A stretch of DNA of 64,000 nucleotides, taken from assembly GCA_963725745.1 (NCBI GenBank), contig CAVRZS010000003.1:428260-492259 (forward strand). The letters are read 5' to 3'. Positions 8,090 to 28,674 of the stretch are shown one piece after another. The stretch comes from an uncultured Chloroflexia bacterium. Its GTDB lineage: Bacteria > Chloroflexota > Limnocylindria > Limnocylindrales > CSP1-4. The notes beneath the pieces are model-generated. The model saw only the letters and a program-made list of their open reading frames with translations, did no database searches and had not been told where the DNA came from. Position numbers and translations under genes: made by a program. Position 1 is the first letter of the stretch, and each line of letters opens with the position of its first letter.

Positions 8090-8920
8090 TCAGGTGCTGC
8101 GGCGGAACGCCGAGTCGTAGGCGGCGACCAAGGCGTCGCCGAGGGCATCGAGGCCGTCCTCATCGAGGCCGCGCCGAGCGCCGACCCAGCGTGCGGTCAG
8201 CGCGACGAACGCCGGCTCGTTGCGGGACCTGGGGGCGCCTCGTGGGGTCAGGAACGGAGCGTCGGTTTCGACCAGCAGGCGCGTCGACGGCACGATCGCG
8301 GCCACCTCGGCCGAGGCCTCCTCGCCGCCCCGGAACACCAGGCCGCTGAAGCTCACGGCGAGGCCCAACGCGAGCACCTCGCGAGCGTAGTCGACCGAAC
8401 CCGAGAAGCTGTGGATCACTGCGGGCGGCCGGTCGTCGAACGCGGCCGCAGCCGGCGCGCCGCCGAACCCGGCCCGGCGCAGCTCCTCGACCAGCGCGTC
8501 CTGGGCGTCGCGCGCGCCCGCCTTCGAGCGGCAATGCAGGATGGCGGGCTTGCCGGTCTCGAGGGCGAGCGCGAGGTTGCGCCGCAGGTTCTCGAGCTGG
8601 GCGTCCCAGGGCGAGAACATCCGGTCCGAATCCAGCCCCGTCTCACCGATCGCGAGGACCCGCTCGTCGCGCGCCCAGGCCTCGATGCTCGCCCACTCGC
8701 GATCAGTCACCTTCGCCGCGTCGTGGGGATGGACGCCGACGGCCGCGTCGAGCCACGGAAATCGCTCCACGATCCCTAGGGCACGCGCCGACGACGCATG
8801 GTTCCAACCCGGCACCAGGATCCGCTCGACGCCCGCGAGCCGGGCGGCTCCGAGCACCAGGTCGAGGTCGTCGGCGAACCGGTCCGCGTTGACGTGGCCG
8901 TGGGCGTCGATGAGTCGCAC
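8090..8920 (-). CDS. tatD: TatD family metal-dependent hydrolase/DNase
   Basis: 276 aa, GTG start. MRLIDAHGHVNADRF ... AIGETGLD ... PAILHCR ... VIHSFSG ... LLVETDAPFL. Confidence 0.85.
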   Translation of the reverse strand: MRLIDAHGHVNADRFADDLDLVLGAARLAGVERILVPGWNHASSARALGIVERFPWLDAAVGVHPHDAAKVTDREWASIEAWARDERVLAIGETGLDSDRMFSPWDAQLENLRRNLALALETGKPAILHCRSKAGARDAQDALVEELRRAGFGGAPAAAAFDDRPPAVIHSFSGSVDYAREVLALGLAVSFSGLVFRGGEEASAEVAAIVPSTRLLVETDAPFLTPRGAPRSRNEPAFVALTARWVGARRGLDEDGLDALGDALVAAYDSAFRRST

Positions 8921-8943: not shown

Positions 8944-9216
8944 CTACACCTCGTCGACCGCCACCTCCTCGGCCCACAGGCGCGACCCCAGGTAGAAGCC
9001 GAGCAGGGCGTCGAGGAAGGCATCGCCCTCGTCAAGGGTGAGCACGCGGCCGCGCTCGTCCCGCCCACCCTGGGCGATCAAGAACTCGATCCCCTCGCGC
9101 TCCTCCGGGATGAGCACCTCGACCTCGGCCGCTTCGCCCGGTTCGCGGACGGTCAGGCGGGCGAGTGGCTCGATGACGGCGTCAGGTGTGCGACTGAGGA
9201 GGAGGACGGCCCTCAC
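8944..9216 (-). CDS. Small acidic hypothetical protein (90 codons), translationally coupled to the giant upstream gene
   Basis: GTG start at 9216..9214 overlaps the TGA of the 1388-aa ORF (GTGA). Sequence: VRAVLLLSRTPDAVIEPLARLTVREPGEAAEVEVLIPEEREGIEFLIAQGGRDERGRVLTLDEGDAFLDALLGFYLGSRLWAEEVAVDEV. I recognise no family. Confidence 0.5.
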   Translation of the reverse strand: MRAVLLLSRTPDAVIEPLARLTVREPGEAAEVEVLIPEEREGIEFLIAQGGRDERGRVLTLDEGDAFLDALLGFYLGSRLWAEEVAVDEV

Positions 9217-12200
9217 GGGGCGGCCTGCTGCTTCTTGTGCATGTCGCCGATCATGATGTCCAGCCGGTGCACGAACCCTTCGATGGCGGCATCGCCGACG
9301 AACGGCCGGATCTTCTCGATGAACTCCGCGCGGTTCTTCGAGATGCCCTCGAGCTTCGTGACGAGGTCGGGCGGGTACTTCTCGGGCAGGTCCCGCGTGA
9401 ACCCCTCGATGCTGGCGCGGTCCTTCGTGCTCGTGAACGACAGCGCATGATCGATCGGCGTGAGCTTGAGCTGACCGTTCTGGAACTCGTACAGGTAGTT
9501 CCCGAAGTTGGCGCCGCGGTCGACGTTGTTGATGAGGTAGTCGAGGGCATCCATGTTGACCATGGCGTCCCGGAACTCCTGGGACTCGATGAGCCGCTTG
9601 AATGCCGCGTGGTCCTTGCGGGCGAGGTCCGCGAGCGAGTTCGACTCACGCCACTCGATCAGCACGCCCTGCTTGCCTTCGATCGTGACGAGCTGCCCCT
9701 GGGGTGCGGCCTCGTACCCCAGCTCCTTCGCCACCATGCCCCCCGCGACCTCTCGCGGCGCCTGCTGGCCCTCGACGATGCCCCGCTCGACGGCTCGTTC
9801 GATGCGGACGGTATTGCCGTCGCGGTCGACGAGGTGCTCGGCCTCGGTCGGCTTGAACAGGTACTTCTTGGTGGGGTCATTCGAATCCTTGACCACCCAC
9901 GACTTCTCGGCCGTGGTGCCTGCCGTGAGCTGGTCGCCGGTGCGCACGTATCGACCTTTCTCCTCGGGAGCGTATTTTGCCGTCGGGGTCGAGGGCGCGG
10001 CGTTCTCGCCGCTCGCCGGCAGATCGCGCCCGGAATGCTGGCCGGCCCGCCCCTCGATGTTCATCTTGACCAGGTCGTCGTACTTGTAGACGGGCTCCGG
10101 CGACGGCGTCAGGTCGTGCGGGACCTTCGACTTGGGGAGCAGGCCGCCCTGGTCCGGCGTCGGGGGACGGATCGCGGGTTGGTTGCCACCAGGCGGCGGG
10201 CCGCCCGGACCGGGTTGACCCGGGGCCACCCCGCCGGGGCTCGGGCCTTTCTTGATGGCCCCTCCCGTGCCGGCGACATCCGCACCGGTCTGGGCGCCAA
10301 CGGGCGGCGGGCCCTTCTTGATCGCCCCTCCCGTGCCGGCGACATCCGCGCCGGTCTCGGCGCCAACCGGTCCTTTGTTGGCACGGCCGTCTGGCGCTGT
10401 TCCCCCACCCGGCTCGGGAATGGGCGCTCTGCCTGCGAGCCCGTCCGGCGCGGTCTCCCCGCCTGCGGGTCCTGGGGGCGTGGCCGGCGGTCGCTCATGG
10501 ATGCCGGTGCCCGGGGTCGTCTCGGCGCCGGGCGTGGGGCCGGCGGGTGCGGCCGGGGCGCGCGGTGGGAACGTTCCCGGGGTCGTCTCGGCGCCGGGCG
10601 TGGGGCCGGCGGGTGCGGCCGGGGCGCGCGGTGGGAACGTTCCCGGGGTCGTCTCGGCGCCGGGCGTGGGGCCGGCGGGTGCGGCCGGGGCGCGCGGTGG
10701 GAACGTTCCCGGGGTCGTCTCGGCGCCGGGCGTGGGGCCGGCGGGTGCGGCCGGGGCGCGCGGTGGGAACGTTCCCGGGGTCGTCTCGGCGCCGGGGGTC
10801 GGGCCGGCGGGTGCGCCTCCGCCCGTTCGACCACCACCACCGCCGCCACCGCCAGTGCCGCCGCCGCCACTGCTGCCGCCGCCACCGCCGCCGCCGGTGA
10901 TGGCCTCGGCTCCGCCGATCGGGATCGCGGGCTCCTTGGGGCCGCCGGGAGCCTTCGTCGGCGTGGCCGTGTCGTGCCCTCCCGTGGCGGTCGGTGACTT
11001 CGTCACGAGCGCCGGCACCAGCGCCCCGGCCGCACCACTGAGCGCGTCGCCGGTCGTCACCTCGCCGACCCCAGCGCCGACGCCCACCTGGACGAGCTTG
11101 CCGGCGACGCCACCCTGCATGACCTTCGGCAGCAGCTGTGTCCCGTGGCCGGCGATGCCGCCCAGCGTGCCCCCGACCATCCCCTCGCCCGGCTTGCCGC
11201 CCGACGCGAGGTTCTGCGCCTCGTTGACGAACCCCTCGGCGAGCACCTGGCCGCCCTTCGCCGCAAATCCCTCGCCGCCGGCCGCGAGCACGCCGCCGAC
11301 CTGGCGGGTCGCCGCCGGCGCGATCGCCCCCGCCCCGATCACGCCGCCCTGCCACGTGCGGCTCATGAGCTTGCCCGCGTCGTGGTCACCAGTGGCGAGC
11401 TGGCGCGAGCCCTCGCCGACGAACGCGCCGCCCGCGCCGGCCCCGACCGCGGTGACGCCGACGGCCCACGCCGGAGCCGTCGCGAGCGCGGCCTCGCCGG
11501 CGATCGGCACGAGCGAGACGAGCGCGACCTGGACAATCGACATCGTCGTCGCGAGGCGGCGGTATCCCCGGTCGAGGTCGGCGTCGTACTCCGCCTCGGC
11601 CTTGACCCGCTGCTCGACGCCGGGCTTCTCCTGGATGATCAGCTTGAAGGCACCGACGTAGTCGCCCGCGTCGATCAGGGTCTTGACCCCCTTGTCGCGC
11701 AGGATCCGGAGGCGGTTGACCTCGAGGTCGAAGCTGCCCGGGTCGTCCGCACCGCCCAGGAATCCGAGGATGCGCAGCTTCGTTCGCGAGTTGCCGAGCT
11801 TGATCGAGTCGTAGTCGTCGCGGGCGCGGACCAGGGCGCTGTAGATGCTCTGCATGTAGCCCTTGAGGGCCTCGCGTGCCTTCTCGTGCAGCCCGAGCGC
11901 CTGGGCCTCCCAGATCTGGATGGTCGTGGGGCCGTTGGTGATGGTCCAGATCCCGGGCTTGTCGGACTTGACGAGGTGGCTCTGGATGACGCTCAGCGCG
12001 TTCTGCACATCCTCGATCCCGAGCTGCTCGGCGAGGCCGGCCTTGCCGCTGGGGCCGAAGTTCTCGGCGATCTTCTGGCGCAGCTTCACCTCGCCGGGCG
12101 CGCGCTGCTTCGTGAGCACCGCCTCGAGGTTCCCGCCGTGGACCGCGGCGTAGTGGGCGTTGAGGATCGACTTGGTCTGCTCGACCCGACCCGCCACCTC

Positions 12201-13379
12201 GCCGATGTCGAGCCCGATGATGTTGAAGTTGGCGCCGCGCTGCAGGGCGTACCGGATTTCGCCCTCGAGCGAGCGGAACTTCACGAGCGCGGCGTACGCC
12301 GATCCCGCCTTCTCGGTCCGGGCAAGGATGAGCGCCGCCCGCAGGGACTCGACGAGCTGGACGTGGCGGCTGGTCGCGTGGCTGCCGACCTTCACGGCGC
12401 TGAGCCGGCCCCGGACCTTCTCGTTGATCTCCTTGATGCCCGATGAGACGGCGATGTCCGCGCGGCCCGCCGTTTCCTCGCGGACGATCCCGGGGCCGGA
12501 CTCGCCCATCTGCGCGTTCTCCCACAGCAGGAGGTGGATCGCGAAGATGGTCTCGTTGAGATCCTCGTAGCTCTCCGCCTGCGGCACGTCCTGGCGGCCC
12601 TTCGCGGCGCCCAGCCGCTTGTTGACCATCGCGATCTGGTCGGCCACGGCGGCGAGCGGTGCGCCCGGCAGGTTGAGCCGCTTCGCCTCGGCGACGGCGT
12701 CGAGCATCCGTGCGGACACGCGCGGCCACGACCCGGCCGCCTTGCGCCGGTTGTCCGGGTCGGCGTCCTGGGCCCCGATGAACACGGTCCGGACGCTCCA
12801 CAGCAGCGACCGGTGCGCGGAGGACAGGTCCTTGCCGAAGCGGACGGAGTCGAGCCCGGCCCCGCCCCTGTTGATGAGGGCGGCCGCGAGGTCCTGGAAG
12901 CCGTTGACCAGGTCGGCGTACGAGTCGAAGGATGGGCCCGAGCCGCGGGGCTTCGTGGTCCCACCGGGCTTCGTCGCCCCGCGCGGCGGGGCCGGCGCGG
13001 GCGCCCGCTGGACGCTGAGCGCCTGGGCGCGCATCAGGCCGGCCACCGCGCGGTTGCCGGCCGAGCGCTGCAGGGCGTTCACCTGCGATCGCGCCAGCCG
13101 ATCCACGGGATCCGCGGGCGTCCAACCGACGAGCGCGCTGCCCTCGTCGGGCGTCTCCTCCGGTTCGGGAGCCGGCGTGCGGGGCGCCTCGACCGCCCGC
13201 TGGCGAGAGCGCGCAGCCCGGGACGGCTGCGCCTTCACGACACGGCTGCGCCCGCGCGCGGCGACTCGCCGCCGCCAGGGACGAGCGCTCCGTCGGGGGG
13301 TTTGGTCGCGAACGAGCCCGGGGCCATCGTGCCCGAGCGTCGGCCAGGCGAGCGAGCCCCACAACCGGGCGGCGGGCAA
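9213..13379 (-). CDS. 1388-aa mosaic protein: LQRSAGNRAV-type N-terminal leader, long helical region, Gly-zipper/TM block, poly-Gly and Pro-rich tandem repeats, C-terminal type-II PI3/PI4-kinase-like domain
   Basis: A single uninterrupted ORF. The C-terminal 233 aa carry KKYLFKP, LDYLINNVDRGANFGNYLY and LTPIDHALSF. The start is uncertain: TTG at 13379, with alternative in-frame GTGs downstream. Confidence 0.8.
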   Translation of the reverse strand: MPAARLWGSLAWPTLGHDGPGLVRDQTPRRSARPWRRRVAARGRSRVVKAQPSRAARSRQRAVEAPRTPAPEPEETPDEGSALVGWTPADPVDRLARSQVNALQRSAGNRAVAGLMRAQALSVQRAPAPAPPRGATKPGGTTKPRGSGPSFDSYADLVNGFQDLAAALINRGGAGLDSVRFGKDLSSAHRSLLWSVRTVFIGAQDADPDNRRKAAGSWPRVSARMLDAVAEAKRLNLPGAPLAAVADQIAMVNKRLGAAKGRQDVPQAESYEDLNETIFAIHLLLWENAQMGESGPGIVREETAGRADIAVSSGIKEINEKVRGRLSAVKVGSHATSRHVQLVESLRAALILARTEKAGSAYAALVKFRSLEGEIRYALQRGANFNIIGLDIGEVAGRVEQTKSILNAHYAAVHGGNLEAVLTKQRAPGEVKLRQKIAENFGPSGKAGLAEQLGIEDVQNALSVIQSHLVKSDKPGIWTITNGPTTIQIWEAQALGLHEKAREALKGYMQSIYSALVRARDDYDSIKLGNSRTKLRILGFLGGADDPGSFDLEVNRLRILRDKGVKTLIDAGDYVGAFKLIIQEKPGVEQRVKAEAEYDADLDRGYRRLATTMSIVQVALVSLVPIAGEAALATAPAWAVGVTAVGAGAGGAFVGEGSRQLATGDHDAGKLMSRTWQGGVIGAGAIAPAATRQVGGVLAAGGEGFAAKGGQVLAEGFVNEAQNLASGGKPGEGMVGGTLGGIAGHGTQLLPKVMQGGVAGKLVQVGVGAGVGEVTTGDALSGAAGALVPALVTKSPTATGGHDTATPTKAPGGPKEPAIPIGGAEAITGGGGGGGSSGGGGTGGGGGGGGRTGGGAPAGPTPGAETTPGTFPPRAPAAPAGPTPGAETTPGTFPPRAPAAPAGPTPGAETTPGTFPPRAPAAPAGPTPGAETTPGTFPPRAPAAPAGPTPGAETTPGTGIHERPPATPPGPAGGETAPDGLAGRAPIPEPGGGTAPDGRANKGPVGAETGADVAGTGGAIKKGPPPVGAQTGADVAGTGGAIKKGPSPGGVAPGQPGPGGPPPGGNQPAIRPPTPDQGGLLPKSKVPHDLTPSPEPVYKYDDLVKMNIEGRAGQHSGRDLPASGENAAPSTPTAKYAPEEKGRYVRTGDQLTAGTTAEKSWVVKDSNDPTKKYLFKPTEAEHLVDRDGNTVRIERAVERGIVEGQQAPREVAGGMVAKELGYEAAPQGQLVTIEGKQGVLIEWRESNSLADLARKDHAAFKRLIESQEFRDAMVNMDALDYLINNVDRGANFGNYLYEFQNGQLKLTPIDHALSFTSTKDRASIEGFTRDLPEKYPPDLVTKLEGISKNRAEFIEKIRPFVGDAAIEGFVHRLDIMIGDMHKKQQAAP
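10243..10372 (-). repeat. Two imperfect 66-bp tandem units inside the giant ORF (encode GA.TGADVAGTGGAIKKGP)
   Basis: gggcctttcttgatggcccctcccgtgccggcgacatccgcaccggtctgggcgccaac is repeated 66 nt later with a few mismatches. Confidence 0.7.
10510..10815 (-). repeat. 66-bp tandem repeat, 4 identical copies plus a diverged partial fifth, inside the giant ORF (22-aa unit APAAPAGPTPGAETTPGTFPPR)
   Basis: The unit cccggggtcgtctcggcgccgggcgtggggccggcgggtgcggccggggcgcgcggtgggaacgtt starts at 10510, 10576, 10642 and 10708. The partial copy from 10774 has 2 mismatches. Confidence 0.9.
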
Positions 13380-13432: not shown

Positions 13433-15076
13433 TCAGGCCCCGTCGGCCTCCCGGTCGACGTCGACGCGAGGGAACAGCGGGAGCGGCGTGTCGGTCACCC
13501 GCCCGGTCGCCTCGCCGGCCGACCACTCGAGCAGCTCGAGGACCGCGGGTCCGCCGTTGCCGTCGGCCTCGTACGGGTACGCGTGACCCAGCTGGGCGAG
13601 GATCTGCGGGGCCATGGCGGGCATGAACGGCGCGACCGCCAGCGCCACCAGCCGGCACGCCTCGACCAGGTCGCCGAGCACGTCCCGCAGCCGGGTGGCG
13701 GCCTCGGCGTCGCCGGCCTGGGCCGCCTTGTTGAGCGTCCAGGGCTGCTCCGAGTCGACCGTCTTGTTGGCGCCGCCGACGAATTCCCACAGCTCCCCGA
13801 GCGCGTCGTGGAGCCGGCAGCCGTCGAGCCGCTCCCGGTACGCCCGCAGCGTGTCGGCCCAGCCCTCGGCGAGGGGCGAGTCGCCGGCCGCTCGCGGGGC
13901 CGGCCGCTCGCCACCGAGGTACCGGTTGACCATCGTGACCGTGCGGTTGACGAGGTTGCCGAAGTCGTTGGCGAGGTCCGCGTTGTAGCGACGCACGAAC
14001 GAATCCCAGGACACGTCGGTGTCGCGGTCGAAGGCGACCTCGCGCAGGGTCACGTAGCGCGCTCCGTCCGCCCCGAACGCGGCCACGACGGCGTGCGGAT
14101 CGAGGAAGTTGCCCCGGCTCTTGCTCATCCGCTCGCCCTGGACGAGCAGCCAGCCGTGGACCCACACGTGGCGCGGTGCGTCGATGCCCGCCGACCACAG
14201 CATCGCCGGCCAGGCGATCGTGTGGAAGCGGGCGATGTCCTTGCCGATGACGTGGAGGTCCGCGGGCCACCAGTGGTGGAAGGCCTCCATGTCGCCCGGG
14301 AAGCCGGCGCCGGTGATGTAGTTGATGAGCGCGTCGTACCAGACGTAGATCGTGCCGGCCTCGGGATCCCAGGAGCCGTCCTCGAGCTGCGCCGTCTCGC
14401 CGTTGTCGGCAATGGGGAACGGGATCCCCCAGGTCGCGCCGGCGCGGCTGATCGAGAAGTCCTCGAGGCCCCCGCGGATGAAGCCCAGCATCTCGTTGCG
14501 GCGGTAGTCCGGCTGGACGAAGTCCGGGTTGGCCTCGTAGTGGGCCGCCAGCCGCTCCTGGTACGCCGACAGGCGGAAGAACCAGTTGCGCTCGGTCAGC
14601 CACTGCAGCGTGACGTCGGGGTGGTTCGGGCATTGCATGCCCCGCGCGGTCTCGAGCAGGTCCGAGATCGCCATGAACCCCTCGTTGGGGCAGTACCAGC
14701 CCTCGTACGTGCCGGGATAGATGTCCCCGTTGTCGTATGCCCGGCGAACCATCTCCTGCGCGGACAGGTAATGGTCGGGATCGGTGGTCCGGATGAACCG
14801 GTCGGGGCTGATCAGGAGCGCGTCCTCGGCCGCGCGGAACAGGGCGACCTTCTCGTCGACGAACTCGCGCGGCGTCCGGCCCTCGGCCGCCGCCGACTGG
14901 GCGATGTTGACGGAGTGCTCGTCGGTGCCGGTGAGGAACCGGGTGTCGTCGCCCAGCATCCGGTGCCAGCGCGCGATGACGTCCGCCCCGATGACCTCGT
15001 ACACGGTGTGCAGGCCCGGAGCGTTGTTCGCGTAGGCGATGGCCGTGGTCAGGTAGTAGCGGCGGCGATCGGACAT
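13433..15076 (-). CDS. metG: Methionine--tRNA ligase (short form)
   Basis: 547 aa: MSDRRRYYLTTAIAYANNAPGLHTVYEVI ... TGTDEHS ... RMSKSRGN (KMSKS). Confidence 0.95.
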   Translation of the reverse strand: MSDRRRYYLTTAIAYANNAPGLHTVYEVIGADVIARWHRMLGDDTRFLTGTDEHSVNIAQSAAAEGRTPREFVDEKVALFRAAEDALLISPDRFIRTTDPDHYLSAQEMVRRAYDNGDIYPGTYEGWYCPNEGFMAISDLLETARGMQCPNHPDVTLQWLTERNWFFRLSAYQERLAAHYEANPDFVQPDYRRNEMLGFIRGGLEDFSISRAGATWGIPFPIADNGETAQLEDGSWDPEAGTIYVWYDALINYITGAGFPGDMEAFHHWWPADLHVIGKDIARFHTIAWPAMLWSAGIDAPRHVWVHGWLLVQGERMSKSRGNFLDPHAVVAAFGADGARYVTLREVAFDRDTDVSWDSFVRRYNADLANDFGNLVNRTVTMVNRYLGGERPAPRAAGDSPLAEGWADTLRAYRERLDGCRLHDALGELWEFVGGANKTVDSEQPWTLNKAAQAGDAEAATRLRDVLGDLVEACRLVALAVAPFMPAMAPQILAQLGHAYPYEADGNGGPAVLELLEWSAGEATGRVTDTPLPLFPRVDVDREADGA

Positions 15077-15098: not shown

Positions 15099-16526
15099 TC
15101 AGTCCGCCGCGACCGGGGCCGGGGCGGGACCCGGCACGGCGGCGGCCAGCGGCCGCCGGAGCAGGAACAGCACCGCGACGAGGGCCAGCGCGAACACGAT
15201 GACCCGGCTGACGAAGGCCGCGTGGGAGCCCGGCATCAGGTCGGTCGCGCCGGGAGCCAGCACGTAGTCGAACGCGGCCGCCGGGATCGCGACGCCCAGG
15301 GCCGATCCCACCTGGCGCAGGGAGTTGAACACGCCCGCCGCGATGCCGGCGTCCTCGGGCCGGAACTCCGACAACGCCGTCACCGTGCTCGCGACGACGC
15401 CCAGCGCGATCGGCACGCCGCCCAGCGCCCCGACGGCGGACACGACCAGGAACGGCGTCGTGGCGTCGAAGGTGGCCATCAGCACGGCCGCCACGAGCGC
15501 GAACACCAGGCTCCAGACCATGACCCTCGACGCCCCGAGGCGGGCGACGATCCCCGCGGCCCGCGGGAACAGGATGGCCGCGAGCAGGGGCCACGGCAGC
15601 AGCACGAGCGCGGTCTCGGTCGGCGTCAGGCCGCGGACGCCCTGGAGGTAGACCGCGAGCTGGATCGACCCGGACAGAATCCCGAACCACGCCGCGGCAC
15701 CCACCAGCGTCGAGGCGACGAACGCGCGGCTGCGGAAGATCTCGAGGTGGACGGCGGGCTCGGCGGCCGACCGTTCGCGCCACACGAAGGCGATCAGCGC
15801 GACGACGGCGAGCGCGAAGCCGCCGATCACGGCCGCGGACGTCCAGCCCCACACGTCGCCCTGGAGGAGTGCGCCGTTGATGCCCAGCAGCACGAGGCTG
15901 CCGAGGACGAGGCCCGGCCCGTCGAGCGGCCGGTGGCGCCCGGCGGCGGCGCGGGGCAACGCGATCCAGGCCATCGTCGCCACGCCCAGCGCGAGCGGGA
16001 CCTGCGCCCAGAAGATCCCCGACCAGCCGACCAGGCTCGCCAGGAGCCCCCCGACCAGCGGGCCGACGACCGCGGCGATCGCGCCGGCGGCGAAGTACAG
16101 CCCGAGCGCACGGCCGCGCGCGGCCCCCTGGTACGTCGCGGAGATGGCCGCCAGCCCGATCGTCAGCAGCGCCGCGCCGCCAACCCCCTGCACGACCCGG
16201 CCCGCCAGGAGCACCCCGTAGGACGGGGCGAGGGCGCTGGCCAGCGCGCCGGCCGCGAACAGGAGGCCGCCGACGGCGAGCACCCGCCGGTGGCCGTAGC
16301 GATCGCCGAGGCGGCCGACGGCGAGGATCGACACCGCGTACGGCAGCACGTATGCGCTGACCGTCCAGGCGAGGGTCGATTGCCCGACGCCGAACGCCTC
16401 GCCGATGACCGGCAGGGCGAGGTTGACGATCTGGAGGTCGAGGTTCGCGGTGAAGGCCGCCAGGACGGCGACCGCGACGATCGCCGACGGGCGGCGCGTT
16501 GCCGCCGGACGGCCGCCGGGGGTCAT
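15099..16526 (-). CDS. MFS transporter, DHA2 (EmrB/QacA-like, 14-TMS) family
   Basis: ATG at 16526: MTPGGRPAATRRPSAIVAVAVLAAFTANLDLQIVNLALPVIGEAFGV...GRLGDRYGHRRVL... with many TM segments to the stop at 15099. In the track it is fused to the upstream lyase ORF. Confidence 0.85.
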   Translation of the reverse strand: MTPGGRPAATRRPSAIVAVAVLAAFTANLDLQIVNLALPVIGEAFGVGQSTLAWTVSAYVLPYAVSILAVGRLGDRYGHRRVLAVGGLLFAAGALASALAPSYGVLLAGRVVQGVGGAALLTIGLAAISATYQGAARGRALGLYFAAGAIAAVVGPLVGGLLASLVGWSGIFWAQVPLALGVATMAWIALPRAAAGRHRPLDGPGLVLGSLVLLGINGALLQGDVWGWTSAAVIGGFALAVVALIAFVWRERSAAEPAVHLEIFRSRAFVASTLVGAAAWFGILSGSIQLAVYLQGVRGLTPTETALVLLPWPLLAAILFPRAAGIVARLGASRVMVWSLVFALVAAVLMATFDATTPFLVVSAVGALGGVPIALGVVASTVTALSEFRPEDAGIAAGVFNSLRQVGSALGVAIPAAAFDYVLAPGATDLMPGSHAAFVSRVIVFALALVAVLFLLRRPLAAAVPGPAPAPVAAD

Positions 16527-18056
16527 GGCGCCGCGGCGACCTCCGCCAGCGCCGCGTCGAGCAGCTCGCCGCACAGCACCCCGCGCCACCGCGGCGTGGA
16601 CCAGCGCCGCCGGCGGGTTGGGGCCCAGCGGCTCGCGGACCCGGCGGATGACGTCGAATGCGGCCGAGATGGCGGGCGGGAGGGGCCGCCCGGTGGGCGC
16701 CACGATAGCCATGGTCGACGTGGTGAGCAGCTCGATCGCGAGCACGTCCTCCAGGAGCCCGAGCGCCTCGTCCGTCCGTTGCGCGGTCAGCGCCGCGTTC
16801 GTGGCGTGGTCCTCGACCCCGAGATCCAACGGGCCGATGTCGAGCGTCGCGGGCTGCGCCGCGAGTCGCAGCTCGGCGTAGCGCACGGCCGCGGTGTAGC
16901 GCAGCAGCCCGCCGCCCTGCGCGATGAGCTCTGCGACCGACTCGCCGAACAGCAGCTCGGCCAGCGACGCCCACAGGTGATTCATCCGGCGGTCGGACAG
17001 CTGGCCGACGTGCGCGATCGCCGGCCGCAGCGCATCGAGCCCGAGCGCCATCGCCATGGGGTGGAAGTTGCCGTTGCTGAGCATCCGCCCCGTGGCGATG
17101 TCGACGAGCGGGTTGTCGTCCATCGCGTTGACCTCGATCGAGACCGACCGCGCGAGGATGTCGATGAACTCGCGGAACGCGCCATGGACCTGGGGACCGA
17201 CCCGGAACGAGAGCGGGTCCTGGACGGATTTGGGCACGCCGGGGGTGAACAGCTGGCTGCCGCCGAGGAACGCCCGGATGTCGGAGCCGGATGCGGCCTG
17301 GCCCGGGACCGCCTTGGCCGCGAGCACGGCGGGGTCGAGGACCGACGGATTGCCGGACATCACCTCGAGCCCGGAGGCGAGCGTGAGGTCCGCGATGCGC
17401 GCGATCTGCCGTGCGTGCTCCGCCACCAGCGCCGCATGCCCGATCGACACCCCGTTGGCGGAGATGAGCGCGAGGCCGTCCTTGGGCTCCAGCACGACGG
17501 GCGAAAGGCCGGCGGCGCGCAGCGCGTCGGCGCCCGACACCGTCTCGCCCCGATACTCCGCACGGCCGCGACCGATGAGCACCTGGGCGATGGCGGCCAT
17601 GTGCATCAGGTCCGACGCACCCACGGAGCCGGTGGTCGCGACGATCGGGTGGATGCCGGCGTTCAGCAGCGCGGCCAGCCCCTCGGCGGCCGGCAGGCTC
17701 GCGCCCGAACCGCCGCGGGCGATGCCGTTGAGGCGGACCGCCATCGCGGCCCGCACCACCGGGGTCGGCAGGGGCTCGCCGATCGCGCCCTCGTGCGCGT
17801 TGACAATCATCTCCTGGTACTGACGCAGCGTCTCGCGGGGCACCCGGACGTCGCGCATGTGACCGAGCCCGGTGTTGAGCCCGTAGATCAGCGCCGGACC
17901 GTCGACCAGCGCGTCGACGACGGCCCGGGACGCGCGGATCCGGTCGATCGCGTCCGGGCCGAGCTCGACCCGTGCGCCATGCGCGACTCGCAGCAGGTCG
18001 TCCATGCGCAGGTCGGCCGCGCCGATCTGGACCGCGTCGCTCGCGTCGACCGTCAT
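16523..18056 (-). CDS. Aromatic amino-acid (histidine/phenylalanine) ammonia-lyase family protein lacking the Gly of the Ala-Ser-Gly MIO triad; last ~20 codons reached only after a 1-nt frame correction near 16580
   Basis: YGLNTGLG, GSVGAS-DLMHMAAI (canonical GSVGASGDLAPLA), VQDPLSFRVGPQVHGA, DDNPLV, NGNFH. The alternative frame after ...AAVARG gives VLCGELLDAALAEVAAAP-TGA, overlapping the MFS ATG as ATGA. The span is 1534 nt = 3n+1. Confidence 0.8.
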
Positions 18057-26453: not shown

Positions 26454-27367
26454 GGGCCGATGACGTCCTCCGTGAGATAGCGATCGAAGCTGGACCCCGT
26501 GATGCGCTCGAAGGCCTCGACATACCGCTGGCGTGTGCCGGCGATGACCGGCACCGGCAGCCCGGGGCCGGGTGGCGTCTTGTCCCAGCGCTCGTGTTCG
26601 AGCCAGTCGCGGACGTACTGCTTGTCGAAGCTCGGCTGCGCCTGGCCGGGCTTGTACGCGGCGGCCTCCCAGAAGCGGCTGGAGTCGGGGGTGAGCACCT
26701 CGTCGATGAGGAGCAGCTCGCCCGACGGCAGCACGCCGAACTCGAACTTGGTGTCGGCCAGGATGATCCCTGCGCGCTCGCACACGGCCGCGCCGTGGCG
26801 GTACAGCGCGAGCGACGCGTCGCGCACGCCGGCCGCGAGCTCGGGCCCGACGATCGTCTCCACGGTCTCGAACGGGATGCTCTCGTCGTGCTCGCCGAGC
26901 GGCGCCTTCGTCGTCGGGGTGAAGATCGGGCCCGGCAGCCGGTCGCTCTCGCGCAGCCCGAACGGGAGCCGGATCCCGCTGATCGCGCCGTCGTCGAGGT
27001 AGGCCTTCCAGGCCGAACCCGAGACATAGCCGCGGACGACGCACTCGATCGGGATCACCTCGGCCCGGCGCCCGATCATCATCCGGCCGCGCAGCATCCG
27101 CACCACGTCGGGGTCGTCACGGGTGATCTCGGCCGGCACGTCGGCAGGATCGGTCGACAGCAGGTGGTTGGGCACGATGTGCGCCGTCTGCGCGAACCAC
27201 CACCGGGACAGCCCGGTGAGCACGCGGCCCTTGTCCGGAATCCCCGTGGGCAGGACGACGTCGAACGCCGACAGCCGGTCCGACGCCACCAGCAGCAGGC
27301 GGTCGGGGCCGAGCTCGTACAGGTCCCGGACCTTGCCGGCGCGGACGAACGCCTCAGCGAGCCGCAC
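26450..27367 (-). CDS. purC: SAICAR synthetase
   Basis: GTG at 27367, a 14-nt overlap with the purB end. GKVRDLYELGPDRLLLVASDRLSAFDVVL...GSAWKAY...ILADTKFEFG...LIDEVLTPDSSRFW. Confidence 0.92.
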   Translation of the reverse strand: MRLAEAFVRAGKVRDLYELGPDRLLLVASDRLSAFDVVLPTGIPDKGRVLTGLSRWWFAQTAHIVPNHLLSTDPADVPAEITRDDPDVVRMLRGRMMIGRRAEVIPIECVVRGYVSGSAWKAYLDDGAISGIRLPFGLRESDRLPGPIFTPTTKAPLGEHDESIPFETVETIVGPELAAGVRDASLALYRHGAAVCERAGIILADTKFEFGVLPSGELLLIDEVLTPDSSRFWEAAAYKPGQAQPSFDKQYVRDWLEHERWDKTPPGPGLPVPVIAGTRQRYVEAFERITGSSFDRYLTEDVIGP

Positions 27368-28674
27368 GGGCGACCTCCAGGCGATCGAGGCGGGCGATGA
27401 CCTCGGGCACGTGGCGCAGCAGCGTCGAGTCGTCGAAGCAGGCGTCGAGATCGGCCAGCGGCAGCTTCTGGGCCACGACGGGGTCGGTCGCGAGCAGGCG
27501 CTGGAGCGGCACCCGCTCGTCGGCGGCCTTGAGGGCGTTGCGCTGGACGATCCCGTAGGCGTCCTCGCGTGACAGGCCGCCGCGCTCGACCAGCGCGAGC
27601 AGGACGCGCGACGAGGCGTGGAGCCCGAGGCCGCGCTCGATGTTCTCGCGCATCCGCTCGGGCCGGACGACGAGGCCCTCGACCAGGCCTGTCGCGCGGA
27701 CCAGCATGTAGTCGAGCAGGATCGTGGCGTCGGGCAGCGCGACGCGCTCCGCGGAGCTGTGGCTGATGTCCCGCTCGTGCCACAGCGGCTGGTTCTCGAG
27801 GCCGGTCTGCGCGTAGCCGCGCAGGAGCCTCGCGAGGCCTGCGATCCGCTCGGACAGGATCGGGTTGCGCTTGTGGGGCATCGCCGAGCTGCCCTTCTGG
27901 CCCGACTTGAACGGCTCCATGACCTCCGCGATCTCGGTGTGCTGGAGGTTGCGGACCTCGGTCGCGAGGCGCTCGAGCGAACCGCCCAGGATCGCGATCG
28001 CGCGTCAGGAAGGCCGCGTGGCGATCGCGCTGGACGACCTGGGTGCTCACGGGATCGACCCGCAGGCCGAGCTCGCCGAGCACCTCGGCCTCGATGTCGG
28101 GCGCCAGGTGGCTGTACGTCCCGACCGGGCCGCTGATCTTGCCCGTCCCGATCTCGGCCGTCGCCTCGGCCAGCCGGGTGCGGCCGCGCGCGACCTCGAA
28201 CGCCCAGCCGGCGCACTTGAGCCCGAACGTGGTGGGCTCGGCGTGCACGGAGTGGGTGCGGCCCATCATCACCGTCCGGGCCTCGGACCGCGCGCGGGCG
28301 ACGAGGGCCGCCGTGAGCCGGTCGGCATCGTCGAGGAGGCGGCCGCCGGCCGCCTTGAGCTGGAGCGCGAGCGCCGTGTCGACGACGTCGCTGCTGGTCA
28401 GCCCGAGGTGCAGGTAGCGGCCGTCCGGACCCACCGTCTCGGCGACCTGCGACACGAAGGCGATCACGTCGTGGTCGGTCGTGCGCTCGATCTCCGCGAT
28501 GCGGGCGACGTCGACGTGCGCCTTCGACTCGATCGCCGCCAGCGCCTCCGCGGGCACCAGGCCACGGCCGACCTGGGCGCGACAGACCGCGATCTCGACC
28601 TCGAGCATCCGCTCGAACCGGGCTTGCTCCGTCCACAGGGCGCCCATCTCGGGCAGCGTGTAGCGCGGGATCAT
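27354..28674 (-). CDS. purB: Adenylosuccinate lyase; 1-nt insertion frame shift near 28000-28008
   Basis: MIPRYTLPEMGALWTEQARFERMLEVE...GLTSSDVVDTA...GRTHSVHAEP...QVVQRDRHAAFL | (A)IAILGGSLERLATEVRNLQHTEIAEVMEPFKSGQKGSSAMPHKRNP...LWHERDISHSS. The halves are in ORFs 27079..28674 and 27354..27920. The span is 1321 nt = 3n+1. Confidence 0.9.

Follow-up and report, generated by a model that had tools for sequence, protein, structure and literature searches.

The window analysed here, a 64,000-nt stretch of contig CAVRZS010000003.1 from an uncultured Chloroflexia bacterium (GCA_963725745.1; positions 428,260 to 492,259 of the forward strand), contains an intact minus-strand open reading frame (ORF) of 1388 amino acids (9213..13379) that is followed by an overlapping ORF of 90 amino acids. 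We think it likely that this protein from a soil bacterium is an orphan effector of a phage-tail-like contractile injection system, carrying a kinase toxin domain at its C-terminus and encoded with its immunity protein, and that insertion of the pair has parted two housekeeping genes, metG and tatD. The effector would carry an N-terminal leader with the motif LQRxAGNxAV, continue through a central region that is exchangeable and contains a hydrophobic segment, then through a long disordered Gly/Pro-rich linker, and end in an enzymatic "warhead". This warhead would be a minimal phosphotransferase that uses ATP and belongs, within the protein-kinase-like superfamily, to the PI3/PI4-kinase branch. 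We propose that the N-terminal leader is recognised and the protein loaded into a particle of eCIS (extracellular contractile injection system) or PVC (Photorhabdus virulence cassette) type, encoded elsewhere in the genome; that, once delivered, the kinase harms the recipient by ATP-dependent phosphorylation of a conserved cellular component; and that within the producer the kinase is bound and blocked by the translationally coupled acidic 90-residue protein. Here, the effector and immunity genes would form an orphan cassette, away from any injection-system operon.

The kinase domain spans residues 1148-1388 (9216..9938, minus strand), as supported by an AlphaFold2 model, Foldseek, profile matches and invariant residues. 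It includes the final 233 codons of the ORF (9216..9914, minus strand), which a preliminary description of the window had likened to the catalytic core of eukaryotic type II phosphatidylinositol 4-kinases (PI4Ks), a resemblance that our searches bear out and show to be greater than chance. With the single sequence, PF00454 gives 20.5-20.9 bits (E 3.6e-4 to 5e-4) and aligns to the catalytic-loop region only, TIGR03843, the profile of the SCO1664 family, gives 24.6-25.3 bits (E 8.6e-6 to ~1e-5; profile positions 50-233 of 253), and phmmer finds no match in the PDB. A match to TRIM5, obtained with a profile of nine sequences, was rejected as spurious. Because the single-sequence and nine-sequence searches failed to detect relatives in the PDB, a deeper profile was needed. 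A word-indexed search yielded only 8 homologues, whereas HMMER, run exhaustively over 1.84 billion representatives with the profile of these homologues, yielded 191 (E≤1e-3), 83 of them at E≤1e-10; the family profile (A3) was then made from an alignment of 40 diverse members. Searched against the PDB with HMMER, this profile matches PI4KIIbeta (E 2.2e-13) and PI4KIIalpha (E 1.4e-11) and, more weakly, FAM20A (1.2e-9), Fam20C (~1e-7), actin-fragmin kinase (4e-4) and CtkA (2e-3), with further weak matches to the phosphatidylinositol 3-kinase-related kinases SMG1, Tel1 and mTOR. Taken individually, 36 of the 40 members match PF00454 at E≤0.01 (best 7.2e-14), 29 match TIGR03843 (best E 4.4e-25), and HipA_2 and Fam20C are each matched by 11. 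The SCO1664 lead offered in the preliminary description therefore holds as a distant relationship and not as membership, since no member comes near the TIGR03843 cut-off of 172.4 bits, which the window domain is far from reaching.

Structure prediction agrees with the profile searches. Modelled by AlphaFold2 on the 40-sequence alignment, the domain has a predicted local distance difference test (pLDDT) score of 94.1 and a predicted template-modelling (pTM) score of 0.90; this model replaced an earlier one, based on nine sequences (pLDDT 60), that was poor in the catalytic region. It shows the two-lobed kinase fold of solved PI3/PI4-kinase members. The comparison with PI4K2A that the preliminary description had recommended was made with Foldseek against the PDB: the 12 best matches are all type II PI4Ks (PI4KIIalpha or PI4KIIbeta; E 1.5e-8 to 4.7e-7, template-modelling (TM) score 0.51-0.64, 17-19% identity), headed by 4hnd_A (E 1.5e-8). 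They are followed by HipA, CtkA, Fam20 and PI4KIIIbeta, and SMG1 is matched too.

The catalytic residues are intact. The strings quoted in the preliminary description, SWVVKDSNDPTKKYLFKPTEAE, REVAGGMVAKELGYEAAP, LDYLINNVDRGANFGNYLY and LTPIDHALSF, occur in the order given there, and the PI4K2A strings that it gave, including AAIDNGLAFP, are correct, as seen in the HMMER alignment to 4hnd_A. In the register between the family profile and PI4KII, lFKP falls on VFKPK, LDYlinNlDRnsgN on the catalytic loop with DRGNDN, and pIDhdlsFP on AIDNGLAFP. Accordingly, the residues that had been named as retained, the Lys of FKP (Lys1176, 9852..9854), the Asp and Asn of DRG..N (Asp1287, 9519..9521; Asn1294, 9498..9500) and the Asp of ID (Asp1310, 9450..9452; all minus strand), align to FKPK, DRGNDN and IDNG of PI4KII. 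All 40 aligned relatives share these four residues as well as Arg1209 and Arg1372, and among 95 members their conservation is 94-100%; Asp1280 and Arg1288 are further key residues. Profile and fold matches were both found and the motifs fall on the catalytic residues, the two points on which the preliminary description had said that its reading could fail. We are highly confident that the domain has a kinase fold with intact catalytic residues. Since the residue set is complete and the fold is that of a kinase, it is reasonable to suppose, as had been suggested before, that the domain is probably an active phosphotransferase.

Its closest solved relatives are the eukaryotic type II PI4Ks, and its closest named bacterial relatives the SCO1664 family. 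With the type II PI4Ks (PDB 4hnd, 4pla, 4wtv), which provide the best matches in both profile and structure searches, it shares the two-lobed core and, in the same order and register, a G-loop-like GxS...FKP segment, an LDYxIxNxDRxxxN catalytic loop and an IDxxLxFP activation loop. It differs from them in being bacterial, in being joined to an effector body and in having a small partner gene alongside. It is also shorter, at ~240 residues compared with ~385, and the profile alignment cannot be extended to PI4KII between FKP and the next conserved helix. In the HMMER alignment, PI4KII carries insertions of 37 and ~15 residues relative to the family, at the positions of the RK-rich insertion (I2) and of I3. 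The RK-rich insertion of PI4KIIalpha provides membrane binding, and its palmitoylation insertion (174-CCPCC-178 with an amphipathic helix) is both required for activity and one of the parts that make up the phosphatidylinositol pocket (PMC3974213). The 1388-residue effector contains no cysteine and hence no CCPCC motif. From these alignments, we regard the window domain as a minimal core that lies outside the type II PI4Ks proper. Lipid-kinase activity cannot be assumed, because the insertions that form the phosphatidylinositol pocket and the membrane anchor are absent; nor can the substrate be read from homology, because several protein kinases (HipA, CtkA, Fam20C, actin-fragmin kinase) have folds that are just as closely related.

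The preliminary description had considered the position of the domain at the end of a large protein to be unusual; instead it is the rule in the family, with the kinase domain lying ≤40 residues from the C-terminus in 111 of the 157 relatives analysed, and it is explained by the layout of injection-system effectors. Ten of 38 large relatives contain PF13699 (eCIS_core/DUF4157; best E 2.7e-33), two contain Annexin repeats, and one also contains a CdiA_C toxin domain. In the published signature of eCIS toxins, DUF4157 stands at the N-terminus and a toxin domain at the C-terminus, with a very long linker between them (PMC8213781, PMC3482391); such toxins sit at the 3' end of their operons, GerE being named as a regulator (PMC8213781). 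The genome matches are all metagenome-assembled genomes (MAGs) of Chloroflexota/Ca. Limnocylindrales, and these MAGs, along with metagenome contigs, repeat this arrangement. In seven loci (L002, L004, L007, L008, L011, L012, L014) the kinase gene lies downstream of genes for Pvc16_N and winged-helix-domain (WHD)/AAA-ATPase proteins; the ATPase gene immediately precedes the kinase ORF in five of them (L004, L007, L011, L012, L014), and a few genes intervene in L002 and L008. Tube (Phage_T4_gp19) or sheath genes are found upstream in several of the loci, and a GerE regulator is encoded downstream in all seven except L014. In L004, L011 and L012, the ORF directly after the ATPase gene is a full-length orthologue of the window protein with the same N-terminal domain. 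Moreover, the kinase domain ends proteins whose upstream regions are unrelated (L002, L007b and L008, and the DUF4157, Annexin and CdiA_C fusions), such that a C-terminal domain has been recombined onto differing N-terminal bodies, as toxin modules are. Taken together, these comparisons make it likely, with slightly more confidence than we give to the proposal as a whole, that the effector is cargo of a contractile injection system.

Two features of the matched loci deserve mention in their own right. In L007 (1543..11070), the AAA ATPase is followed by two tandem pairs of effector and small ORF. The effectors, of ~1054 and ~1940 residues, both have an LQR leader and a C-terminal kinase; identity is 69% between the kinases and 58% between the small ORFs, and we interpret the tandem pairs as a putative diversified toxin-immunity array. 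In the long-contig assemblies L001/L005, L003 and L015, the effector gene and genes next to it are split (the L001 orthologue is present as 1040 + 174 residues, and metG and groEL are split too), which marks these assemblies as frameshift-prone, so that protein lengths taken from them are unreliable.

The second element of the cassette is the small ORF (8944..9216, minus strand), whose GTG start codon overlaps the TGA stop codon of the effector gene (GTGA). Its 90-residue product is acidic, with 20 Asp/Glu compared with 9 Lys/Arg, and its codon-position GC content (0.82/0.41/0.90) is of the coding type. In L001/L005, L002, L004, L006, L007 (twice), L008, L009, L012 and L014, the kinase domain is followed directly by homologues that are 35-82% identical and have an invariant GSRxWA motif; counting L001/L005 once, the window and 9 other distinct loci have an ORF for 90-99 residues that overlaps the stop codon or abuts it. 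The small ORF accompanies the kinase domain even where the upstream body differs. Its family comprises 51 clusters, all of ~90 residues, without a match in Pfam, PHROG or PADLOC; weak matches of single members to EspG and GNAT were treated as chance. Pairwise identities of kinases and small ORFs are correlated (r = 0.50, 45 pairs), a correlation in which co-evolution is not separable from shared descent. A toxin-immunity pair is suggested because the small ORF is coupled to the kinase domain, is conserved with it, and lies directly downstream of it whatever the upstream body. Immunity genes are known for some eCIS toxins, supporting antibacterial use (PMC8213781), and on balance we lean slightly towards an immunity protein for the kinase.

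The remainder of the effector also resembles a delivered protein in its layout. The first ~139 residues (12963..13379) are basic, Pro-rich and probably disordered, and include the leader motif LQRSAGNRAV (residues 103-112; 13044..13073, minus strand), which is the most conserved N-terminal block of the orthologues. The general form LQRxAGNxAV occurs in the first ~50-140 residues of nearly all effector ORFs, regardless of their central region; in a six-frame translation of 635 kb it is found about once per locus and nearly always in the kinase-bearing ORF or in the ORF that follows the AAA ATPase. Among members of the family, 15 have the motif, and in two of these (P0098, P0105) the DUF4157 HExxHxxQ motif lies downstream of it. 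The central domain (residues ~140-607; 11559..12962, minus strand) is lineage-specific: it has no family match in Pfam, no meaningful match in the PDB and only two homologues in 5.8 billion clusters, and the N-terminal 560 residues likewise yield two homologues, no Pfam match and a chance-level PDB match to talin. It is conserved in L004, L006, L009, L011 and L012, and is replaced by other sequence in L002, L007b and L008. It is followed by a hydrophobic segment (residues 608-655; 11415..11558, minus strand) in which Kyte-Doolittle averages over 19-residue windows rise to 1.92; this segment, which would fit one or two membrane-spanning helices, is kept in P0009 and P0010. Residues 656-1110 (10050..11414, minus strand) form a linker that, in its composition per 100 residues, is first Gly/Ala-rich, then poly-Gly, then Pro/Thr-rich, and is probably disordered. 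Within it, Tandem Repeats Finder detects in-frame tandem repeats of 66 nt, which encode Pro/Thr-rich units of 22 residues, at 10510..10815 (4.6 copies, 99% identity) and 10242..10367 (1.9 copies, 93% identity). Because these repeats look recently expanded, the length of the linker probably varies.

The gene itself (9213..13379, minus strand) is well supported by the ORF list, by a GC content of 0.91 at third codon positions and by full-length orthologues in L004, L005, L006, L009, L011 and L012. Its codon-position GC pattern of 0.72/0.55/0.91 is as expected for a real gene in a genome with 72% GC. The start codon is uncertain: a TTG at either codon 1 or codon 6 and a GTG at codon 48 are the candidates, and there is no ATG. 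The pair lies between metG (13433..15076), 53 nt upstream of the effector gene, and tatD (8090..8920), 23 nt downstream of the small ORF, all in the same orientation; the same setting is found in the syntenic MAG contig L001/L005. Since these same-strand gaps are short, the pair may be co-transcribed with the housekeeping genes. Since metG and tatD are separated by the pair in this lineage only, the pair looks like an insertion.

Other neighbours in the window are uvrD, groES/EL, pur genes, peptide ABC transporter genes, glycine-cleavage genes, aconitase and a 985-residue ORF (15099..18056, minus strand) in which residues 16-470 form an ammonia-lyase domain for aromatic amino acids (histidine) and residues 531-712 a major facilitator superfamily (MFS) transporter domain. 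In the syntenic contig L001 the ammonia-lyase and the transporter are encoded by separate, overlapping genes, and the joined ORF is either a real fusion or the product of a lost stop codon or frameshift. In the ORF at 27354..27920 (minus strand), adenylosuccinate lyase is represented by its C-terminal end alone (Lyase_1 positions 282-308 and ADSL_C), and purB appears to be broken or frameshifted near 27920. A prophage origin for the effector gene was rejected: the sole phage signal is one weak match to a PHROG of unknown function, and the neighbours are housekeeping genes. A known anti-phage defence system was likewise rejected, the PADLOC matches being limited to E 0.03-0.05.

Several observations weigh against an injected kinase toxin with its own immunity protein. 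A search for injection-system (eCIS) genes across the 64-kb window found none, the neighbours of the pair all being housekeeping genes, and PF13699 is not detected in the effector even at E≤10. The window sequence does not reach the PF00454 gathering threshold (20.9 vs 27.1 bits). In one relative, P0008 (L002, 10001..11263), the DFG-like Asp, conserved at 98% elsewhere, is replaced by Asn (PINSELSF); P0008 would be either an inactive copy or an error of a frameshift-prone assembly. The small ORF is absent from L010 and L011, and from these loci only, where the protein extends beyond the kinase domain; it could alternatively encode a chaperone, an activator or a co-effector. Lastly, the retrievable database names of the relatives are all "hypothetical protein".

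One alternative is a resident, membrane-anchored signalling or housekeeping kinase, in effect a giant relative of SCO1664 with the small ORF as its regulatory partner. The gene lies between metG and tatD in the same orientation as both, in a window free of injection genes, and the hydrophobic segment and the relationship to TIGR03843 would suit such a protein. Nonetheless, we consider it very unlikely. Full-length orthologues follow the AAA ATPase of an injection system in L004, L011 and L012, as do other kinase ORFs in L007 and L014; the module of kinase and small ORF behaves as a toxin cassette does, having been recombined onto other N-terminal bodies and, in L007, tandemly duplicated; 10 of the 38 relatives are fused to DUF4157; the TIGR03843 score is 25 bits against a cut-off of 172; and the position between metG and tatD, being confined to this lineage, has the look of an insertion. 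The context evidence behind the preferred reading would also suit an injection effector that acts inside the producer population, as in the intracellular or cell-death-type contractile injection systems of Streptomyces. On firing, the kinase would set off regulated death or differentiation; up to that point the small protein would keep it inactive. A neutralising partner suits a self-directed enzyme, and the layout is like that of Tme of Streptomyces davawensis, which acts on the life cycle of its own producer (PMC11126660). No feature found here separates extracellular from cytoplasmic systems, and we hold a self-directed role to be highly doubtful.

A different alternative concerns the substrate. 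Legionella LepB and MavQ, Francisella OpiA and Rickettsia Risk1 rewire host membrane identity, and the window protein might likewise be a true PI4K, or another phosphoinositide kinase, that is delivered into eukaryotic cells to this end. The nearest solved structures and the profile matches are type II PI4Ks, single members of the family weakly match LepB_N (E 9e-4) and T4SS_Risk1 (E 1.8e-3), and two relatives contain Annexin repeats; moreover, eCIS act on eukaryotes (PMC8213781). We nevertheless find this quite unlikely, given that the CCPCC palmitoylation insertion, the RK-rich insertion and I3 of PI4KII (PMC3974213) are all missing from a protein free of cysteine, that folds equally close to that of the domain belong to protein kinases, and that the hosts are uncultured Chloroflexota, known from metagenomes only, without a known eukaryotic host. 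A coupled candidate immunity gene also implies a target that is present in the producer. An injected kinase toxin, neutralised in the producer by the protein encoded next to it, remains the reading that we prefer.

A more specific version of the preferred reading, in which the family would be the first of kinase toxins delivered by a contractile injection system with their own immunity protein, and in which the target would be a bacterial membrane lipid or lipid-linked precursor rather than a protein, is unlikely in our estimation. On this version, a lipid-kinase core, minimal and PI4KII-like, would be carried to the membrane of the recipient by the hydrophobic segment. If it were true, eukaryotic type II PI4Ks would descend from kinases of bacterial conflict systems. 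In the literature that we searched, no eCIS toxin with a PI4KII/SCO1664-like (PI3/PI4-kinase-like) domain has been described, nor has its partner, the one related proposal being the "Tox-Peptide Kinase" predicted in 2012. Most activities of contractile-injection cargo are unassigned and few have identified immunity genes, so that the family would add both a kinase chemistry and a matched neutraliser. The conserved N-terminal leader is a candidate loading signal. The domain is among the smallest intact relatives of type II PI4Ks, which makes it a minimal model of this branch and possibly a clue to its origin, and it comes from Chloroflexota (Ca. Limnocylindrales) that are known here from metagenome assemblies alone.

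We compared the window protein with known systems that share parts of its design. The SCO1664 family (TIGR03843) is the closest named bacterial family, matched by the 29 members noted above; its proteins are small, stand-alone and from Actinobacteria, rather than C-terminal modules of effectors, and the window domain is not one of them. HipA-type toxin kinases, which arrest growth and are neutralised by a small partner, the DNA-binding antitoxin HipB encoded upstream, have a similar protein-kinase-like fold (Foldseek E 5e-6), and HipA_2 is the profile matched by 11 of the 40 members. HipA is, by contrast, an intracellular component of a toxin-antitoxin system, whereas the window partner is encoded downstream, is unrelated to HipB, and accompanies a kinase carried on a large effector body. 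Phage polyvalent or MuF-type proteins offer a third parallel: a similar kinase-like fold ends large "head morphogenesis" and ADP-ribosyltransferase proteins (BFVD TM 0.60-0.66, E 2e-6 to 1e-5), suggesting from predicted models that this kinase recurs on large phage-derived proteins, although the carriers have an N-terminal MuF domain and are encoded in phage genomes. One of the BFVD matches is an ADP-ribosyltransferase polyvalent protein of a Mycobacterium phage, and there is a weak match to phrog_3162 as well.

The closest parallels are among toxins of contractile injection systems. The "Tox-Peptide Kinase" predicted in PVC toxins was described as related to lantibiotic-synthetase kinases, was found in Firmicutes and had no immunity gene (PMC3482391); the window family differs in being PI4KII/SCO1664-like and in having a dedicated partner ORF. 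In Tme, the tape-measure-related effector of Streptomyces davawensis, DUF4157, transmembrane helices and ~70% disorder are combined with an endonuclease at the C-terminus that causes the phenotype (PMC11126660). The window protein is similarly very large and probably mostly disordered, with an N-terminal eCIS marker, putative transmembrane helices and a C-terminal enzymatic domain; the differences are that Tme combines DUF4157 with an endonuclease and is encoded upstream of baseplate genes, whereas the window protein combines an LQR leader alone with a kinase and has orthologues encoded after the ATPase. As a group, the eCIS-associated toxins and PVC-type polymorphic toxins (Zhang 2012, PMC3482391; Geller 2021, PMC8213781) have the same plan, in which a very long linker connects an N-terminal targeting part to a C-terminal enzymatic domain that varies. 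The window copy stands apart from them in having no DUF4157 and in lying outside any eCIS operon in the window, yet its relatives include DUF4157 fusions, and its orthologues occupy the place of such toxins, following the AAA ATPase at the 3' end of eCIS operons, beside a GerE regulator.

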